In this document: in pieces, positions 5,161-31,960 of the stretch
Layout: each line of letters starts with the position of its first letter
How positions within the stretch are numbered: position 1 is the first letter of the stretch
Virus genome (UHGV): UHGV-1374865
DNA length: 37,134 nt
Direction: 5' to 3' (one strand)
Origin: a virus
Position numbers and translations under genes: made by a program
The notes under the pieces: generated by a model
Told to the model about the DNA's origin: nothing
Database searches by the model: none
What the model saw: the letters and a program-made list of their open reading frames with translations, nothing else

Positions 5161-5256
5161 ATGGCACAGTTTTTGGCAAACAGAATTAAAGGTGGACACT
5201 TGACAATTGATGATGTACCGGAGAGCTTAAAAGAACAGGTACAGGCGTTACTTTAG
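5161..5256 (+). CDS. Small ORF, 31 aa (MAQFLANRIKGGHLTIDDVPESLKEQVQALL), resembling short conserved phage miniproteins.
   Basis: ATG 4 nt after the upstream stop, preceded by a GGGGGTG SD-like sequence. Below the ORF-track cutoff, so only weakly supported. Confidence 0.3.
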   Translation: MAQFLANRIKGGHLTIDDVPESLKEQVQALL

Positions 5257-5404
5257 GAGTAAAAATTGAATAAGTAGGACATTAGCACATAGAGATATGT
5301 GTTATTTTTATACCTTTTTGGTCAGTAGATGAGACCTTAAACAGTCAATTCGTGGTGGATGGTTACACACCTTAAACAACCTAAAACGAAAGGAGAACGG
5401 AAAC

Positions 5405-5959
5405 ATGAAAACAGAATTTTTAAAAGGACTCGGATTGGAACAGGACGCGATTGATAAGATCATGGCAGAGAACGGGAAAGACATTGCCGCTGAAAAGGCA
5501 AAGACAACCAAAGCAGAGGGTGAGCGTGACAATTACAAGAGTCAGCTTGAGACTGCAACGGAATCTTTGGAAAAATTTAAAGATGTTGACCCAACAGCTA
5601 TGCAGGGCGAGATTGATAAGCTGAATCAGCAGTTGAAAGATAAAGACGCTGAGTATGCTGCCAAAGAAGCAGATCGCATCTTTTCCGACACGATCAAAGA
5701 AGCGATCAAGACAGCAGGTGGACGCAATGAAAAAGCGGTCATGGCTATGCTTGATATGGACGCTTTAAAAGAATCGAAAAATCAGTCTGAGGACATCAAG
5801 AAAGCATTGGAAACCGTAAAGGAATCTGATGCTTATTTATTTGGCTCTGATGAGCCTTTTAAGAACCCGGTGGGAGCAACTGGCGGCTCTGGTGGCGAGA
5901 TTGGTAGAGACATGCATTCTGCTATGCGAGCGGCGATGGGGCTTCCACCAGAAAAATAG
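5405..5959 (+). CDS. Scaffolding protein.
   Basis: Strong RBS (AAAGGAGAAcggaaacATG). Charged, coiled-coil-like sequence rich in K/E/A. Lies immediately upstream of the major capsid gene. Confidence 0.7.
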   Translation: MKTEFLKGLGLEQDAIDKIMAENGKDIAAEKAKTTKAEGERDNYKSQLETATESLEKFKDVDPTAMQGEIDKLNQQLKDKDAEYAAKEADRIFSDTIKEAIKTAGGRNEKAVMAMLDMDALKESKNQSEDIKKALETVKESDAYLFGSDEPFKNPVGATGGSGGEIGRDMHSAMRAAMGLPPEK

Positions 5960-5990
5960 CAAACAATATTAGAAAGAACGAGGTAATAAT

Positions 5991-6848
5991 ATGGCAAACA
6001 ACATTGCATTAAGAAAAGAATATTTATCAGGTTTACTTGACCAGGTATACAAACTGTCATCTCTCACAGCTGTCCTTGACGGGGCAAACGAGTTGGCGCG
6101 AGAGGGAGCGAACGCGAACGAAATCTTAATCCCGAAAATGACAATGCAGGGATTAGCGAACTACAATAGACAGTCAGGATATGTAGCAGGTGACGTAACT
6201 CTCGAGTACGAAACAAAGAAATGCGGATATGATCGCGGACGAATGTTCACGATTGATGCCATGGACAACATTGAATCCGCAGGTCTGGCGTTCAGCCGAC
6301 TTTCTGGAGAGTTCCTGCGCACCAAAGTAGTGCCAGAACTTGATGCGTACCGTTTGGCTGGATATGCATCTGTTTCCGGTGTCACGACTGTAGAAGCAGC
6401 TCTCAATGATGGAAAGGCGGCTCTTGCAGCGCTTAGAACAGCTAGAAGCAAAATTGAGAACGCAGAAGCAAACCTTGCAACTTGTTATCTGTTTATCAAT
6501 CCAACAATCTACGGATTGATCGAGGACTTGGACACAACGGCATCCAAGAAAGCTATTGATGGATTTGCAGGAATTGTCAAGGTTCCAGAGGGAAGATTCT
6601 ATTCAAAAATCGATCTGACAGCTTCTGGCGCAGGAGGATATGCTAAGAATTCCGAAGGTAAAGCAGTAAACTTCATGATCGTGGACAAACAGGCAGCAAT
6701 TCAGTACCAGAAACACACTGTATCCAAGATTATTACACCAGACCAGAACCAGGATGCGGACGCTTGGAAATTTGGATACCGTACTGTTGGTATCGCAGAA
6801 TGCTACGATAACAAGAAAGATGGTATCTATGTACACACAGTAGTGTAA
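5991..6848 (+). CDS. Major capsid protein, HK97-fold family by position.
   Basis: A 285-aa ORF after the scaffold with a good RBS. Composition is typical of siphovirus major capsid proteins. Confidence 0.75.
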   Translation: MANNIALRKEYLSGLLDQVYKLSSLTAVLDGANELAREGANANEILIPKMTMQGLANYNRQSGYVAGDVTLEYETKKCGYDRGRMFTIDAMDNIESAGLAFSRLSGEFLRTKVVPELDAYRLAGYASVSGVTTVEAALNDGKAALAALRTARSKIENAEANLATCYLFINPTIYGLIEDLDTTASKKAIDGFAGIVKVPEGRFYSKIDLTASGAGGYAKNSEGKAVNFMIVDKQAAIQYQKHTVSKIITPDQNQDADAWKFGYRTVGIAECYDNKKDGIYVHTVV

Positions 6849-6859
6849 GGAGTGATCGA

Positions 6860-7240
6860 ATGAATCTGTACGCAGATTATGAATATTACATCTCTGCATA
6901 CAAGGGAAAACTGGCGAAAGAAGAGTTTGAAAAATCCATTATGAAAGCATCAGCTTATGTCCGAAGGATTACCTTCGGGCGCGCTGATGACAATATGGAA
7001 ATGGAAGAAGTAAAGCTTGCCACATGCTCTGTCTGTGATTTGATTGCAAATGACGAAAAGGTCAGAAGCAAGCATTCTGGACGTGCGGTCACATCCGAAA
7101 ACACAGATGGATACTCCGTCAGCTACGAAAGCGGAGGAAACGGGGAAACAGCAGATGAACTGCTTGGCAGAAAGATATTTGATACATTGAAACTCTATCT
7201 TATGCCGACTGGTCTCTTATATATGGGGGTAGAATCATGA
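6860..7240 (+). CDS. Head-tail connector protein, gp6-like.
   Basis: Small ORF directly after the capsid gene, in the usual position for a head-tail connector. Confidence 0.45.
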   Translation: MNLYADYEYYISAYKGKLAKEEFEKSIMKASAYVRRITFGRADDNMEMEEVKLATCSVCDLIANDEKVRSKHSGRAVTSENTDGYSVSYESGGNGETADELLGRKIFDTLKLYLMPTGLLYMGVES

Positions 7241-9316: not shown

Positions 9317-9889
9317 ATGAATTTTTTTTATGAAGAGTTGCCAAACACAGTAAATGTGAAGGGTGAAAATATCAAGGTCATTACGGATTTCCGTGAATAC
9401 ATCAGGCTTTTGGACATGTTAAAAGACCAAGAGCTTGATGCTCTTCAAAAATTCGCGATCATACAGCAGTATTTTCTTGATGACGTAGTCGCAGACGAAG
9501 AAGCTATAAGCGCATTGTCCCGCTTTATAACGATGGATACAAATTGCGTAGAGGTTGCGGAGACGGGTGATTGTGGGAGACCGCAAGAAAGGCCAAAGAA
9601 AAATTTGTTCTCGTACTCCATTGATTATCCGTATATATTATCCGGCTTTCTCAGGGATTATGGGATTGATTTAATCGACATTAAATATATGCACTGGTGG
9701 AAATTCCGGATGCTTTTCGATGGTCTGTCTGATGATACAGAAATCAAGCAGCGAATATTGTACCGCAGCGTTGATTTATCGGAAATCAAAGACAAAGAAG
9801 AGAGAAAACGAATTAAAAAGATCCAGAAATCAATTCAATTGCCATCTGAGAGCCTGACTGATTATGATATCGGAAATGCTTTTATGTGA
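9317..9889 (+). CDS. Tail assembly chaperone, gpT-like. Its frame is open from ~9248 in the -1 frame relative to gpG.
   Basis: The ORF overlaps the gpG 3' end in the -1 frame. The weak RBS on its own ATG is consistent with frameshift-dependent expression. Confidence 0.45.
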   Translation: MNFFYEELPNTVNVKGENIKVITDFREYIRLLDMLKDQELDALQKFAIIQQYFLDDVVADEEAISALSRFITMDTNCVEVAETGDCGRPQERPKKNLFSYSIDYPYILSGFLRDYGIDLIDIKYMHWWKFRMLFDGLSDDTEIKQRILYRSVDLSEIKDKEERKRIKKIQKSIQLPSESLTDYDIGNAFM

Positions 9890-9897
9890 GGTGACAG

Positions 9898-25008: not shown

Positions 25009-25722
25009 TTGAACAAATTGCAGCAAAAATTAGATAGCCGAGAAGTGGCTGAAATGGTTGGAAAGGAACACAAGAACATCATCAGAGACATAAGAGGGTA
25101 TTTAGAAGAATTTTCACAGCTCAATTTTGAGCCGTCAGATTTCTTCCATGAATCTACATATAAGCGTCGCGGAAAAGAATACCCGTGCTATTTAATCACA
25201 AAAGAGGGCTGCGAATTTATCGCCCACAAACTCACAGGAGTCAAAGGGACGGAGTTCACAGCAAAATACATCAAACGGTTTCATGAGATGGAAAATATCA
25301 TCAAAGAGCACGTTCCGCAGGGTAAAGAACTTCTTGCACTGGCAGTTCTGGAAGCGCATAAGACCATTGAAGAGCAGACAGCGCAGATTGAGGAAATGAA
25401 GCCGAAAGCGATATTTGCGGATGCTGTCGCTACCAGTCATACATCCATCTTAATCGGCGATCTGGCGAAGATTTTGAAACAGAACGGCGTTGAAACAGGG
25501 CAGAAGCGCTTATTTGAGTGGTTGCGTGAAAATGGATATCTGAGTAAGAGAAAAGGAACGGAATGGAACTCGCCCACACAGAAATCTATGAATTTAGGGC
25601 TGTTTGAAGTGAAAGAGACAACAGCTATGAATCCAGATGGTTCCGTTCGGATTAACAAAACCACAAAAGTAACCGGCAAAGGACAGCAGTATTTTATCAA
25701 CAAATTCCTGAATGTAGCATAG
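25009..25722 (+). CDS. Antirepressor: N-terminal Rha-family domain plus C-terminal KilAC domain.
   Basis: LDSREVAEMVGKEHKNIIRDIR resembles the Rha regulatory domain. The C-terminus ...ILIGDLAKILKQNGVETGQKRLFEWLRENGYL resembles KilAC. TTG start with GGAGGT RBS. Confidence 0.7.
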   Translation: MNKLQQKLDSREVAEMVGKEHKNIIRDIRGYLEEFSQLNFEPSDFFHESTYKRRGKEYPCYLITKEGCEFIAHKLTGVKGTEFTAKYIKRFHEMENIIKEHVPQGKELLALAVLEAHKTIEEQTAQIEEMKPKAIFADAVATSHTSILIGDLAKILKQNGVETGQKRLFEWLRENGYLSKRKGTEWNSPTQKSMNLGLFEVKETTAMNPDGSVRINKTTKVTGKGQQYFINKFLNVA

Positions 25723-26114: not shown

Positions 26115-26300
26115 ATGGAGATTAAAGGAACCTACCACTGCCAGACTACCCACCACCCCAACACTTTGAACAGTTGGGATATCCGCTCCGTATCGGTTGA
26201 ATTGCCGGAAAAGGACAAGCCTTACTGGCATAAGATTACAGCATCTGTGATCGGGTTTGTACTGGTGCTACTTGCGTGGTATCTGGTGTTTGGGTATTAA
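26115..26300 (+). CDS. Small membrane protein (61 aa, C-terminal transmembrane segment).
   Basis: GAAGGGAGG RBS. C-terminal hydrophobic helix VIGFVLVLLAWYLVFGY. Confidence 0.55.
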   Translation: MEIKGTYHCQTTHHPNTLNSWDIRSVSVELPEKDKPYWHKITASVIGFVLVLLAWYLVFGY

Positions 26301-26383
26301 AAATGAGCACCTACGAAAAGGGTAGATGTAGGTACTCTGGTAAAAAATCAATTTAATTTTAAGCGAAAAGGAGAGAAATGTAA

Positions 26384-27022
26384 ATGAAAAAATTTGAATT
26401 AACCAGTGAATTTGTAACTTTTTTAGGAAAGAAGCTCTTTAGAATCAAGGCTCTTGTGTCGTTTGGTGATGTAGTAGAGGGAGAATTAGGCGGATTCGTA
26501 GAAAAAGAAGAAAACCTTGATCAGTCCGGTAACGCTTGGGTATACGGTGACGCTAAGGTATTCGGTGACGCTTGGGTATTCGGTGGCGCTAAGGTATACG
26601 GTGACGCTCGGGTATTCGGTGACGCTCAGGTACACGGTAACGCTTGGGTATTCGGTGACGCTCAGGTACACGGTAACGCTTGGGTATACGGTGACGCTCG
26701 GGTATACGGTGACGCTTGGGTATACGGTGACGCTAAGGTATTCGGTGACGCTTGGGTATTCGGTGGCGCTAAGGTATACGGTGACGCTCAGATACAATGC
26801 TGCCGTGATTATTCTGCTACAAGTTGTTTTGGATCAGAAAATAGGGCGACAACATTTTTCCGCACGAAAAATGAAGGAATCAGCGTGAGATGTGGATGTT
26901 TTTACGGAACACTGTCGGAATTTAGAGAAAAGGTGAAAGAACGCCACGGAGACAGCCGACTGGCAAAGGAATATTTGATGCTGGCAGATTTGATGGAGTT
27001 TAGATTATCCAAGGATGAGTAG
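26384..27022 (+). CDS. Hexapeptide-repeat (predicted beta-solenoid) protein with a Cys-rich C-terminal domain. Function unknown.
   Basis: AAAGGAGAG RBS. Fifteen consecutive 6-aa repeats G(D/N)A(W/K/R/Q)V(Y/F/H), followed by CCRDY...SCFG...VRCGCFYG. Confidence 0.8.
   Translation: MKKFELTSEFVTFLGKKLFRIKALVSFGDVVEGELGGFVEKEENLDQSGNAWVYGDAKVFGDAWVFGGAKVYGDARVFGDAQVHGNAWVFGDAQVHGNAWVYGDARVYGDAWVYGDAKVFGDAWVFGGAKVYGDAQIQCCRDYSATSCFGSENRATTFFRTKNEGISVRCGCFYGTLSEFREKVKERHGDSRLAKEYLMLADLMEFRLSKDE
26528..26797. repeat. Near-perfect 18-bp tandem DNA repeat, 15 units (GGTGACGCTNNGGTATWC), with a 54-bp higher-order duplication.
   Basis: Seen directly. Units 2-4 (26546-26599) are identical to units 12-14 (26726-26779). 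Every unit preserves the reading frame. Confidence 0.9.
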
Positions 27023-27623: not shown

Positions 27624-28280
27624 ATGGCAACACCAGTATTGATTATTGGCAAATCAGGAAGTGGAAAATCTACCAGCATGAGAAACTGTCAGAACAACGA
27701 TTTTAACCTTATCAGGGTCCTTAATAAGCCGCTACCTTTTAAAGGAAAGGTAAATGGATGGTTTTCAGACGATTACCAGCAGATCATGAAATTATTGATT
27801 GCATCAAAAGCAGATTCCATCGTGATTGATGATGCCGGCTATCTAATAACAAATCATTTTATGAGGGGACACAGCTCAGCCGGAAAAGGAAATGGGGTAT
27901 TCTCCCTGTACAACGACATTGGAGACTATTTCTGGAACTTAATCCAGTTTATTGTGACAAAAGTGCCAGAGAATAAAATCGTGTATATTATCATGCACGA
28001 AGAAAAAGACGAAGCAGGGGAAGTGAAACCAAAAACCATCGGGAAACTACTCGATGAAAAAGTTTGCATCGAAGGAATGTTTACGATAGTGCTTAGATGC
28101 ATTGAGGAAGGCGGAAAGCATTTGTTTGTCACTCAAGCAAGCCAAGGAGCAGTAAGTAAATCTCCGATCGGAATGTTTGAGGATTTAGCAATAGATAATG
28201 ACCTACTGTTGGTCGATAAGAAAATTAGAGAATACTACGGATTGGCAAAAGGAGAAGAAAACAATGCAGAAACCAAATAA
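27624..28280 (+). CDS. P-loop ATPase, AAA_24 / Sak4-like (phage recombination ATPase).
   Basis: Walker A IIGKSGSGKST near the N-terminus. ~218 aa with Walker B-like VIDDAGY. Followed by a DUF669-like gene, the usual pairing. Confidence 0.6.
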   Translation: MATPVLIIGKSGSGKSTSMRNCQNNDFNLIRVLNKPLPFKGKVNGWFSDDYQQIMKLLIASKADSIVIDDAGYLITNHFMRGHSSAGKGNGVFSLYNDIGDYFWNLIQFIVTKVPENKIVYIIMHEEKDEAGEVKPKTIGKLLDEKVCIEGMFTIVLRCIEEGGKHLFVTQASQGAVSKSPIGMFEDLAIDNDLLLVDKKIREYYGLAKGEENNAETK

Positions 28281-29390: not shown

Positions 29391-29874
29391 AGAAGAGATT
29401 AAACATTCATACAGCATGAGGGAGATTGTGGAGAGATATGGGTTCCATGTGAATCGGGCGGGGTTTGTTCACTGCCCGTTCCACAAGGGAGACAAGGGAG
29501 CTTCATTGAAAATCTACCCAGACAGCTTCCATTGTTTCGGATGCGGAACAAATGGAGATATCTTTACATTCGTACAGCTAATTGATCATGTCGATTTCAA
29601 AGAAGCGTTCCAGAGTCTTGGAGGAACTTATGAAAAGCCGACATTCCAGTCGAAATTGGCGATATATAGAAGCAGGAAGAAGGCAGAGCAGAGAAAGCGA
29701 GAAGAGGAAAAGCTCCGGAGAAAAAGAGAGCTGAATAACGTTCTGATTGATGTGTACCGCGATTATATGAATAAGTCGGAACCATTCAGTGACGTCTGGT
29801 GCGATTGTTGCAATGCTCTGCAATATCAGTTGTACTTATACGAAATATTAAACGAGAAGGAGGCGAGAAAGTGA
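29383..29874 (+). CDS. Primase zinc-finger (zf-CHC2) domain protein.
   Basis: CPFHKGDKGASLKIYPDSFHCFGCGTNGD is a CHC2 zinc-finger signature. The basic C-terminal tail overlaps the next gene by GTGA. Confidence 0.7.
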   Translation: MNREEIKHSYSMREIVERYGFHVNRAGFVHCPFHKGDKGASLKIYPDSFHCFGCGTNGDIFTFVQLIDHVDFKEAFQSLGGTYEKPTFQSKLAIYRSRKKAEQRKREEEKLRRKRELNNVLIDVYRDYMNKSEPFSDVWCDCCNALQYQLYLYEILNEKEARK

Positions 29875-31739
29875 AAGAAATAAACGAATTTGATGCAGAC
29901 AGCATACTGGATGATGAAGTTTTCATCGAATTATTTGAAATGGAAGATCCGATTCTCCGATCAAAAACAAAAGTGCAGCTTATCAGAAGAGCGAAACAGC
30001 TGGGCGTCAAGTCAGATTTTGAAGAGATTTTGAAAGGATACAATCAGGCTGACCGAGAAATGAAGAGACAGGAACGGGAAAACAGAACTGTTTGCACAGT
30101 AGATAACTATACGAATTTCACAGGACCTCACGATCGTATGTATTGCGGCGCCTGGATTGCGGATGATCGCGGCGTGTTCGCACAGAATTCCGGAAGGGTT
30201 GATGAAGTGGCTTGCTACCACCCAATCCTGCCAGTAGAGCGGCTGCGAAACTTAGAGACCGGGGAAGAGCAAATAAAACTGTCGTACAGGCGAAATAACC
30301 AGTGGCACGATATTGTGGTCCCAAAAACGATGATCACATCGGCGAATAAGATCGTGGCATTATCAGGAAGAGGGATTGCAGTTACGTCAGAAAATGCAAA
30401 ATTACTGGTCAAGTATCTGGCAGACGTAGAAAATGGAAATGATGACTACATAGATGTACAATATTCCACCAGTAAACTTGGATGGATAAATGACCAGTTT
30501 ATCCCCTATGATACAGATATCGTTTTTGACGGAGATAATCGGTTTAAACAGACTTTCGAGAGTGTTTCCGAGCATGGAAGTTTTGATGTGTGGCTAAATC
30601 ATATTCGGGAGTTGCGGTCATCTGGAAGAATGGAAGTGAAATTCTTATTGGCAGCTTCATTTTCCAGTGTACTGGTTCATGTTCTTGGTGGACTTCCATT
30701 TTTTGTCGATCTGTGGGGAGAGACAGAGGGAGGAAAGACGGTATCTTTAATGGTCGCAGCTTCCGTGTGGGCGAATCCAGACGAAAGCAGATATATTGGA
30801 GACTTCAAAACAACGGATGTTGCACTGGAAGCGAAAGCGGATATGTTAAATAATTTACCCATGTTTCTGGATGATACAAGCAAAACCTCCGCAAGAATCA
30901 GGGATAACTTTGAGGGAATTGTTTATGATCTGTGCTCTGGAAAAGGAAAGAGCCGGTCAAACAAAGACCTCGGAATCAATCGAGAGAATCGGTGGCGGAA
31001 CGTAATGATCTGCAATGGTGAGAGACCGCTTAGCAGCTACGTCAGTCAGGGCGGTGCAATCAACAGGATTCTGGAGGTTGAGTGTGGCGAGAAAATCTAT
31101 CAGGATCCGCAGAAGACAGCGGAAACGGTAAAACGGAATTACGGTCACGCAGGTAGGAAATTTGTGGAGATCATCAAAGAAATGGGAGAAGATGAAATTC
31201 GTTCTATCCAGAAAGAGTTTCAGAAGGAGTTATTCAACACGGACAAGATGCAGAAGCAGAGTATTTCACTTTCCATCGTTCTGACAGCCGATAAAATAGC
31301 CACGGATCTAATTTTTAAGGATGGACAGTATATTTCTATGGACGAAGCGAAACAGGTGCTTATAGACCGAAATGAGCTGTCTGACAATGAGCGGTGCTAC
31401 CAATATATCCTTGATAAAATCGCAATGAACAGCCAGAGATTTGATGTGTCTTCAAATTGTGAAAAATGGGGAATTATTGAGGACGGGTACGCAGTAATTT
31501 ACGGACAGGCATTTAAGGAAATCTGCGAATCTGGGAAATTCTCAAAAAAGTCCTTCCTGTCATGGGCTGCAAAGAAAGGCGTTATCCAGCAGGACAGCAG
31601 GGGAAATCCGACAAGGCAAAAAAAGATTGATGGGAAGAATTCAAGATGCGTGTTTTTGCGACTTGAATCGGAAGAAAATGTAGATAATGACGGGTTTAAA
31701 AGTATCGATGAGACACAGGAGAAACTGCCGTTTGAGTAG
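29871..31739 (+). CDS. DUF927-like primase/helicase NTPase (replication initiator).
   Basis: GTG start with AAGGAGG RBS. Walker A-like GETEGGKT. A 622-aa protein of the kind that partners zf-CHC2 proteins in phage/plasmid replication modules. Followed directly by an iteron region. Confidence 0.55.
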   Translation: MKEINEFDADSILDDEVFIELFEMEDPILRSKTKVQLIRRAKQLGVKSDFEEILKGYNQADREMKRQERENRTVCTVDNYTNFTGPHDRMYCGAWIADDRGVFAQNSGRVDEVACYHPILPVERLRNLETGEEQIKLSYRRNNQWHDIVVPKTMITSANKIVALSGRGIAVTSENAKLLVKYLADVENGNDDYIDVQYSTSKLGWINDQFIPYDTDIVFDGDNRFKQTFESVSEHGSFDVWLNHIRELRSSGRMEVKFLLAASFSSVLVHVLGGLPFFVDLWGETEGGKTVSLMVAASVWANPDESRYIGDFKTTDVALEAKADMLNNLPMFLDDTSKTSARIRDNFEGIVYDLCSGKGKSRSNKDLGINRENRWRNVMICNGERPLSSYVSQGGAINRILEVECGEKIYQDPQKTAETVKRNYGHAGRKFVEIIKEMGEDEIRSIQKEFQKELFNTDKMQKQSISLSIVLTADKIATDLIFKDGQYISMDEAKQVLIDRNELSDNERCYQYILDKIAMNSQRFDVSSNCEKWGIIEDGYAVIYGQAFKEICESGKFSKKSFLSWAAKKGVIQQDSRGNPTRQKKIDGKNSRCVFLRLESEENVDNDGFKSIDETQEKLPFE

Positions 31740-31740
31740 T

Positions 31741-31960
31741 ATGGTAACAAAAGTAGCAAGGTAACAACAGGAAATTGCACTATATATAAAGAATAAAAAT
31801 GCGAGAAATCCAAAAAATATGAAGTCTATATATAGATTAAAAATCATTGTTACTTTTGTTACCAACCTCAAAAACCTGTCAACCATGCTGGTTTGATAGG
31901 GTAACAGACTTTTGTTACCGGAAGAAAAATTTTGTTGCTTTGTTACGAAGAGGGTAGTGT
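31741..31960. repeat. Candidate origin of replication: eight GGTAACA/TGTTACC iterons in direct and inverted orientation flanking an AT-rich core.
   Basis: Seen directly. GGTAACA lies at ~31743, 31760 and 31899. TGTTAC(C) lies at ~31848, 31857, 31913, 31933 and 31941. AT-rich TATATATAAAGAATAAAAAT...TATATATAGATTAAAAAT lies between them. Confidence 0.55.

Follow-up and report, generated by a model that had tools for sequence, protein, structure and literature searches.

The window analyzed here, the whole 37134-nt stretch of the viral genome UHGV-1374865, contains an open reading frame (ORF; 26384..27022, plus strand) whose central part consists of 15 similar 18-bp units set end to end in frame. 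The locus raises the question of what kind of protein such an array encodes, how the array evolves, and what role the product could have in a phage. We consider it very probable that the gene encodes a three-part cytoplasmic protein, made up of an N-terminal cap, 15 hexads, and a C-terminal domain, and that it evolves in the manner described below, with an array of freely varying length that is homogenized at most sites and kept diverse at three residues of each hexad. The gene adds to a known but uncharacterized family, that of the phage YdcK-type solenoid proteins (PHROG 7964; orf229 of Streptococcus phage Sfi19). For its function we have a preferred reading, a part in conflicts with the host or with other phages, which we put forward only tentatively.

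Organization of the gene

The ORF is complete, with an ATG start and 212 aa followed by a stop codon, and no other sequence record was found for exactly this product. An earlier note on this DNA, made by a model from the letters, had described a hexapeptide-repeat protein of the early region with 15 back-to-back hexads in 18-bp units; the general description is supported, and parsing the array in frame bore out the number and the unit length (Table 1). The hexads read, from the first to the eighth, GNAWVY, GDAKVF, GDAWVF, GGAKVY, GDARVF, GDAQVH, GNAWVF, and GDAQVH, and from the ninth to the fifteenth, GNAWVY, GDARVY, GDAWVY, GDAKVF, GDAWVF, GGAKVY, and GDAQIQ. The pattern G(D/N)A-x-V-(Y/F/H) that had been given for them fits most units, but two hexads carry glycine at the second position and the last unit is degenerate.

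Tandem Repeats Finder (TRF) delimited an array at 26527-26788 with a period of 18 bp (14.6 copies, 81% matches) and a score of 405; a periodicity of 36 bp, corresponding to two units, gave 91% matches. The units differ from one another at 0 to 7 of their 18 positions, which makes the term "near-perfect" used for the repeat an overstatement, and in units 1 to 14 this variation is confined to the first and second bases of codons 2, 4, and 6. Units 2 to 4 are indeed identical to units 12 to 14, as had been noticed, but the exact duplication is one of 78 bp rather than 54 bp, with its second copy starting 180 bp (10 units) after the first. At the protein level, the repeat region (90 aa) has a net charge of about -4 and an isoelectric point (pI) of 4.65, a mild acidity and not the strictly acidic surface that had been proposed. 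Two ORFs in other frames overlap the array (26486..26797 on the minus strand and 26517..26888 on the plus strand) and are by-products of the repeat; orf129 of phage Sfi19 (L004 3089-3478), annotated within orf229, looks like the same artifact.

Turnover of array length

A comparison of repeat number across relatives had been suggested in the earlier note; once carried out, it showed that the number is clearly not invariant, with values from 2 to 26 hexads. Lengths among the closest relatives form a ladder (152, 158 ... 218 aa) with steps of 6 aa, that is, of one hexad, and different gut metagenomes yielded alleles of 210, 216, and 270 aa whose ends are identical. Alleles with only two or three hexads were also found, and gp34 of Ruminococcus phage phiRM10 has 25. 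Across 77 IMG/VR loci with 6 to 26 hexads, the numbers were distributed 27:26:24 modulo 3 and 40:37 modulo 2; hexad number shows no preference for whole turns of a helix.

The closest case is a contig of 37009 nt (ENA ERZ652150 NODE_72, here L003) that matches the window with 100% identity over 20 kb (window positions 16384-37022) save for one gap. The gap is of exactly 180 bp (10 hexads), lies between the two 78-bp repeats, and leaves a product of 152 aa (P0016). Since 37009 - 55 + 180 = 37134, the size of the window, the contig and the window may be two assemblies of a single data set. Neither the long nor the short array junction was found in the IMG/VR and JGI metagenomes. The easy in-frame gain and loss of units that had been predicted is common in the family. 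The likeness to a contingency locus is a loose one: copy number is polymorphic among near-identical genomes, and the array has in common with in-frame variable-number tandem repeat genes and contingency loci that the tandem repeat is coding, but the units stay in frame, so that what changes is length, with no on/off switching by frameshift. Units are gained and lost in frame by recombination or slippage between near-identical copies.

Concerted evolution and selection within the array

The codons of the array are GGT, GAC/AAC, GCT, NNG, GTA, and TNC. In units 1 to 14, glycine, alanine, and valine are always encoded by GGT, GCT, and GTA, whereas GGA and GCA are the codons preferred by the phage, and under the phage's own codon usage this choice of codons has a log10 P of -42. 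A codon choice so far from the usage of the phage points to recent shared ancestry of the units and not to convergent selection on the protein, and the recent expansion postulated in the earlier note is borne out in the sense that the units were recently homogenized. Each lineage has a uniform codon set of its own (GGT-AAC-GCA-NGG-GTC-TAT in Sfi19, GGC-AAC-GCC-GAA-GTG-TAT in a Mannheimia phage, and GGC-GAC-GCG-TGG-GTG-TTC in mycobacteriophage Boilgate), which indicates that the arrays are continually homogenized.

Within arrays, heterozygosity at the 4-fold sites is 0.054 for glycine, 0.000 for alanine, and 0.002 for valine, whereas it reaches 0.37 to 0.58 at the first and second bases of codons 2, 4, and 6. 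Thus, neutral differences have been erased, yet differences only a few bases away persist, which implies that selection favors surface diversity at hexad positions 2, 4, and 6. The ratio of nonsynonymous to synonymous polymorphism (pN/pS) among units has an overall value of 5.3 and reaches 17 in the array of the window (pS of 0.011 and pN of 0.187), a figure that, among gene-converting units, is indicative and not a standard formal test; in the flanking domains, compared with those of relatives, pN/pS is 0.14 (N-terminal cap) and 0.22 (C-terminal domain). The variable residues are N or D at position 2, W, R, E, K, M, or Q at position 4, and S, Y, F, or C at position 6, and aromatic residues (W, Y, or F) account for about 40% of those at positions 4 and 6. 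Their order along the arrays is near random, without periodicity at lags 1 to 7 and with a slight avoidance of identical neighbors. Within an array, residues 1, 3, and 5 of the hexad (G, A, and V) and their synonymous sites are kept uniform, and residues 2, 4, and 6 are kept diverse. This combination of hexad numbers that vary freely across the family with concerted evolution and selected diversity at three fixed positions appears to be undescribed.

A diversity-generating retroelement was considered as a source of the variation and is unlikely: the variable bases are not adenine specific, and no reverse transcriptase was present in the gene calls of the identical contig L003, which leaves the first 16 kb of the window unscanned. 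Moreover, TRF run on the whole 37-kb window detected a single tandem repeat besides the array, one of 33 bp (no search was made for dispersed copies of the unit). This second repeat, at window positions 31735-31767, has a 17-bp unit in 1.9 copies (AGTAGCAAGGTAACAAA) and lies at the end of a primase/helicase-like ORF (29799-31739); it could be origin related.

Family assignment and predicted structure

The earlier note could not place the protein in a named family with confidence, but it is assignable. It matches Pfam family PF18836 (B_solenoid_ydck) with 54.8 bits against a gathering cutoff of 30, in three stretches, and at full length it matches the profiles of PHROG 7964 (E value of 9.5e-77) and PHROG 5070 (2e-54), both families of unknown function; taken separately, the N-terminal part hits phrog_20149 and the C-terminal part phrog_20532. 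In sequence searches of the PDB, the only relative of solved structure is YdcK (2F9C/2PIG), found by phmmer with an E value of 2.9e-13 (aa 19-125 against YdcK 27-138) and by the family profile with 9e-23 (84 bits, profile positions 19-132 against YdcK 26-138). Both alignments span the N-terminal region, so the cap is homologous too. The NCBIfam model of YdcK itself (NF040481, YdcK_fam) scored 60.7 bits, short of its equivalog cutoff of 350, and judged by these matches the product is a homologue of YdcK and not an orthologue or equivalog.

YdcK of Salmonella and Escherichia coli shares the cap motif and homologous hexapeptide solenoid repeats with the phage protein. It differs in its length (326 to 334 aa), its irregular repeats without tandem identity at the DNA level, and the lack of the C-terminal domain found here. 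The three-part architecture and the early position are the same in Sfi19 orf229 and phiRM10 gp34 (PHROG 7964/5070), all annotated as hypothetical, but orf229 has 18 hexads and gp34 has 25, against 15 here, their surface residues differ, and the C-terminal domain of orf229 is divergent, retaining just a GCFYGT core. The family is very large, with at least 7974 homologues in a word-indexed search, and extends over phages of Firmicutes, Proteobacteria, Bacteroidota, and Actinobacteria.

Structure prediction with AlphaFold2 (AF2) on an ordinary MAFFT alignment of 67 homologues gave a confident N-terminal cap (predicted local distance difference test [pLDDT] score of 88 to 92) and repeats with a pLDDT of 40 to 50. 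With an alignment kept in register by the use of exact prefixes and suffixes of homologues, the pLDDT of the repeats was about 33, with a strand every six residues. The sole match of a Foldseek search against the PDB was the N-terminal region of YdcK (E value of 0.06). The invariant G-x-A-x-V-x pattern is what a left-handed helix of the YdcK or LpxA type needs on its inside. By homology, the hexads would form a left-handed beta-helix with about three hexads per turn and a rise of 4.8 Å, which here would give about five turns and a length of about 24 Å, with G, A, and V predicted to point inward and the three variable residues to lie exposed on the surface. The lack of periodicity in the variable residues means that they give no independent support for three hexads per turn. 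A surface so rich in aromatic residues may mean that the helix is stable only as an oligomer.

The C-terminal domain

The AF2 model of the C-terminal domain consists of four strands followed by two helices (aa 143-208, pLDDT of 80 to 95). Conservation across the family leaves G171, C172, and Y197 invariant and G150, C170, F173, G175, F180, and H188 nearly so. There are five cysteines in this part of the protein, which had led to its description as a Cys-rich domain. This is not a general Cys-rich or zinc domain, since C172 alone is invariant, C170 is nearly so, and CC139/140 and C148 are lineage specific. The last 74 residues have no relative in Pfam (searched with family members), NCBIfam (searched with the domain of the window), or the PDB (searched with the profile). 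A marginal local match links window positions 26891-26932 (aa 170-183, RCGCFYGTLSEFRE) to the active-site segment of MsrA, in yeast Mxr1 (3PIM residues 11-49, ACGCFWGTEHMYRK); it is not significant, with E values of 0.38 for the domain profile and 0.026 for the full profile.

An exhaustive search found the domain in 1075 clusters at 50% identity. In nearly all the proteins inspected it is located at or near the C terminus, with a further C-terminal extension in a few. Parts of the protein behave as modules: the same domain follows pentapeptide or CxFGxx hexad repeats in other phage proteins (Table 1) and also stands alone as a protein of about 70 aa (P0203, P0208, P0322, and P0323), and the cap and hexads also occur without it. 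In Lactobacillus phage LfeInf (L008), the query matches seven places at 5171-7086 and 9568-9951, and the four paralogues that were read consist of cap and hexads without the C-terminal domain, clustered around recA.

Genomic context

The window represents a temperate siphovirus of Ruminococcus (Mediterraneibacter) gnavus whose early region shares 94.5% identity with that of phage RG-TP1. The solenoid gene is part of a rightward early operon, between antirepressor and recombination genes (Table 1). Three small ORFs separate it from the antirepressor, the nearest of which (26115-26300) codes for a protein with a hydrophobic C terminus, and the genes that follow are Sak4-like, DUF669-like, ERCC4, and primase genes. 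In RG-TP1, the same genes flank a locus without the solenoid gene; the replication module can therefore do without this gene, and the repeats are not the origin of that module. The cassette that makes the difference ends at the ribosome-binding site of the next gene, which is common to RG-TP1 (TAGGAGGATAA).

Table 1. Location of the solenoid gene features and of related elements (positions refer to the window unless another record is named)
Feature	Position	Strand	Evidence or remark
Rha/ANT antirepressor, upstream	25009..25722	+	Pfam PF09669, PF03374
Cassette present here and in phiRM10	26322..27019	+	About 53 bp instead in RG-TP1 (L001 2747-2800)
Ribosome-binding site GGAGAG	26370..26375	+	8 nt 5' of ATG; direct reading
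N-terminal cap, aa 1-48 (beta-hairpins, then G-x-x-G-G-x-x-E-x-E-x-N-L)	26384..26527	+	Homologous to YdcK N terminus
Hexad array G-(D/N/G)-A-x-V-x, 15 x 18 bp, aa 49-138	26528..26797	+	In-frame parsing and TRF
78-bp exact direct repeat, copy 1 (units 1/2-5 boundary)	26532..26609	+	Exact run at offset 180
78-bp exact direct repeat, copy 2 (units 11/12-15 boundary)	26712..26789	+	Exact run at offset 180
C-terminal domain, aa 139-212	26798..27019	+	AF2 model, family conservation
Sak4-like AAA_24 recombination protein, downstream, start of recombination/replication module	27624..28280	+	Pfam PF13479, RG-TP1 annotation
C-terminal domain on pentapeptide/CxFGxx repeats			P0336, P0315, P0260, P0275, P0304, P0327, P0361; BFVD A0A6J7X720, A0A6J5NJK4, A0A6J5RFV7

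Homologues in other phages are found in comparable places. The one in Sfi19 lies between cro and Gam/Sak4, that of phiRM10 before Gam/Rad52, that of a Mannheimia phage after RecT/exonuclease, and that of Liberibacter phage SC2 next to a repressor and a Bro-N antirepressor, while in mycobacteriophage Boilgate the gene is located in an early-looking region with methyltransferase genes on one side and a primase/polymerase/helicase gene on the other. In SC2, gp140, gp145, and gp150 (L102 2109-2956), beside a C2-type repressor, look like one homologue split into three ORFs. A small protein with a hydrophobic C-terminal segment is encoded upstream of the solenoid gene both here and in phiRM10, and RG-TP1 retains it. 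A different small protein family is encoded directly downstream of the solenoid gene in 41 of 78 related loci.

Possible function

The reading that we prefer, and for which we claim only tentative standing, is that of a fast-evolving interaction protein made early in infection and engaged in host-phage or phage-phage conflict. Its partner would be a protein of the host or of a competitor, such as a target of defense or of takeover; the solenoid would serve as a spacer or binding surface that can be adjusted and diversified, with the cap and the C-terminal domain as conserved functional ends. This reading draws on the early expression suggested by the position of the gene, its accessory status, its spread across phyla, and the expansion of paralogues in some phages. 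It also draws on the purifying selection acting on the end domains together with diversifying selection and length turnover in the middle. We infer that the protein is neither an enzyme nor a bactofilin filament. In view of its size, its early-region location, its pN/pS of more than 5 in the array (about 0.2 in the flanks), and its unconstrained length, the family is a promising candidate for a new class of proteins in phage-host interaction.

Several points weigh against a role in conflict. PADLOC gave no match, no functional study of the family was found in the literature, and neighbor clustering of 78 loci revealed no constant partner, just small membrane proteins, Sipho_Gp157, and Sak4. 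AF2 produced no confident solenoid, so the predicted assignment of residues to the inside or the outside depends on the homology to YdcK and the conservation pattern. Most of the length variants come from short-read assemblies, which are prone to collapse or expand arrays of this kind, and the pN/pS of the array, taken among gene-converting units, is not a standard test. Finally, positions 2, 4, and 6 could be diverse because solubility or folding calls for a mixed surface, and not because of an arms race.

A stronger form of the conflict reading, which we regard as unlikely, would make the hexad array a programmable recognition surface, in which turnover of units and diversifying selection at three surface residues per hexad yield new specificities and lengths. 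The targets would be rapidly changing host defense or competitor proteins, and the cap and the Gly-Cys domain would serve as effector ends. The analogy, and it is only that, is with the repeat-variable diresidues of transcription activator-like (TAL) effectors and with leucine-rich repeat (LRR) immune receptors, in which near-identical DNA repeats likewise carry selected variation at fixed surface positions; there is no relation in sequence or fold, and the variable residues of the hexad array have no periodic order. If true, the array would be a beta-solenoid counterpart of the LRR- and TAL-type variable repeats, common to thousands of phages across bacterial phyla.

Alternatively, the protein could be a regulator or adaptor of the lysis-lysogeny decision or of the early replication and recombination program, with ends that bind a regulator and a solenoid that is a near-neutral passive spacer. 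The homologues always adjoin cro or antirepressor genes and recombination genes, the copy number is unconstrained modulo 3, as expected of a neutral spacer, and single representatives fuse the C-terminal domain to N termini of the helix-turn-helix or Bro-N-like type (P0238, P0318, and P0337). However, each of these fusions was found once and may stem from a chimeric gene call, RG-TP1 lacks the gene although its regulatory and replication module is the same, and a neutral spacer poorly accounts for a pN/pS that far exceeds 1 at the variable positions 2, 4, and 6. On this balance, we judge it unlikely that regulation is the main role.

A DNA mimic, which had been raised in the earlier note, seems quite unlikely. 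In this scheme, a DNA-like rod would inhibit a restriction enzyme or a nuclease of the RecBCD/AddAB type, as in Qnr, MfpA, Gam, or gp5.9. Pentapeptide-repeat proteins such as Qnr and MfpA act as DNA mimics, and the predicted rod shape, the acidity of the repeat region, the presence of the same C-terminal domain behind pentapeptide repeats, and a location next to genes of the Gam/Sak4/RecT type are all in keeping with the idea. The charge, however, is small and variable, with a mean of -0.25 per hexad and a range of -0.78 to +0.27 in 76 arrays, W, Y, F, R, and K abound on the surface, arrays exist with as few as two hexads, and the PDB searches showed no similarity to any known DNA mimic. Qnr, MfpA, and AlbG are regular solenoid rods as well, but their type of repeat is different.

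The bactofilin-like polymer suggested in the same note, a cytoskeletal element that would reorganize the infected cell, is improbable. Bactofilins (PF04519) are likewise small beta-helical proteins and produce weak cross-matches; many homologues have a precomputed PF04519 match and the NCBI name "polymer-forming cytoskeletal protein," and an aromatic surface could drive self-association. The match of the product to PF04519 is nonetheless below threshold (15.2 bits against a cutoff of 27.9; E value of 0.026), and the family profile retrieves YdcK and LpxA-like proteins from the PDB without any bactofilin structure. Bactofilins are right-handed and polymerize end to end through the helix itself, and the predicted helix here differs in type and handedness and has globular domains at both ends.

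That the protein is a hexapeptide acyltransferase of the LpxA type or another enzyme is very improbable. Some records are named "putative acyltransferase" or "trimeric LpxA-like," and after YdcK, the next PDB matches of the profile are LpxA-like acyltransferases and gamma-carbonic-anhydrase-like proteins, all marginal (E values of 0.003 to 0.9), but the match to Hexapep (PF00132) is below threshold (12.6 bits against a cutoff of 27), the repeats are idealized, without loop insertions, and a range of 2 to 26 hexads is incompatible with a fixed active-site geometry. Least credible of all, and in our opinion to be discounted, is a role of the repeats as DNA (replication-origin iterons or a CRISPR-like array) with an incidental ORF: 18-bp direct repeats do lie near replication genes, their synonymous sites are uniform, and homologous arrays are labeled as CRISPR spacers in Vibrio phage records, but homologues from different phyla keep the G-x-A-x-V-x pattern and the two end domains while using different codons, the replication module of RG-TP1 has no array, and the units abut without spacers.

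Annotation of homologous arrays

Array lengths in short-read assemblies are not to be trusted, and arrays of this family have been misannotated as CRISPR arrays, acyltransferases, glycerol kinase, and cytoskeletal proteins. The hexad arrays of Vibrio phage 1.209.O (L009 3508-3821) and of MG592510 and MG592419 are labeled "CRISPR spacers," which is a false CRISPR call. Other names found in the records of homologues are glycerol kinase (in Javan prophages), MFS-type transporter, acyl-carrier-protein, UDP-3-O acyltransferase, and polymer-forming cytoskeletal protein.

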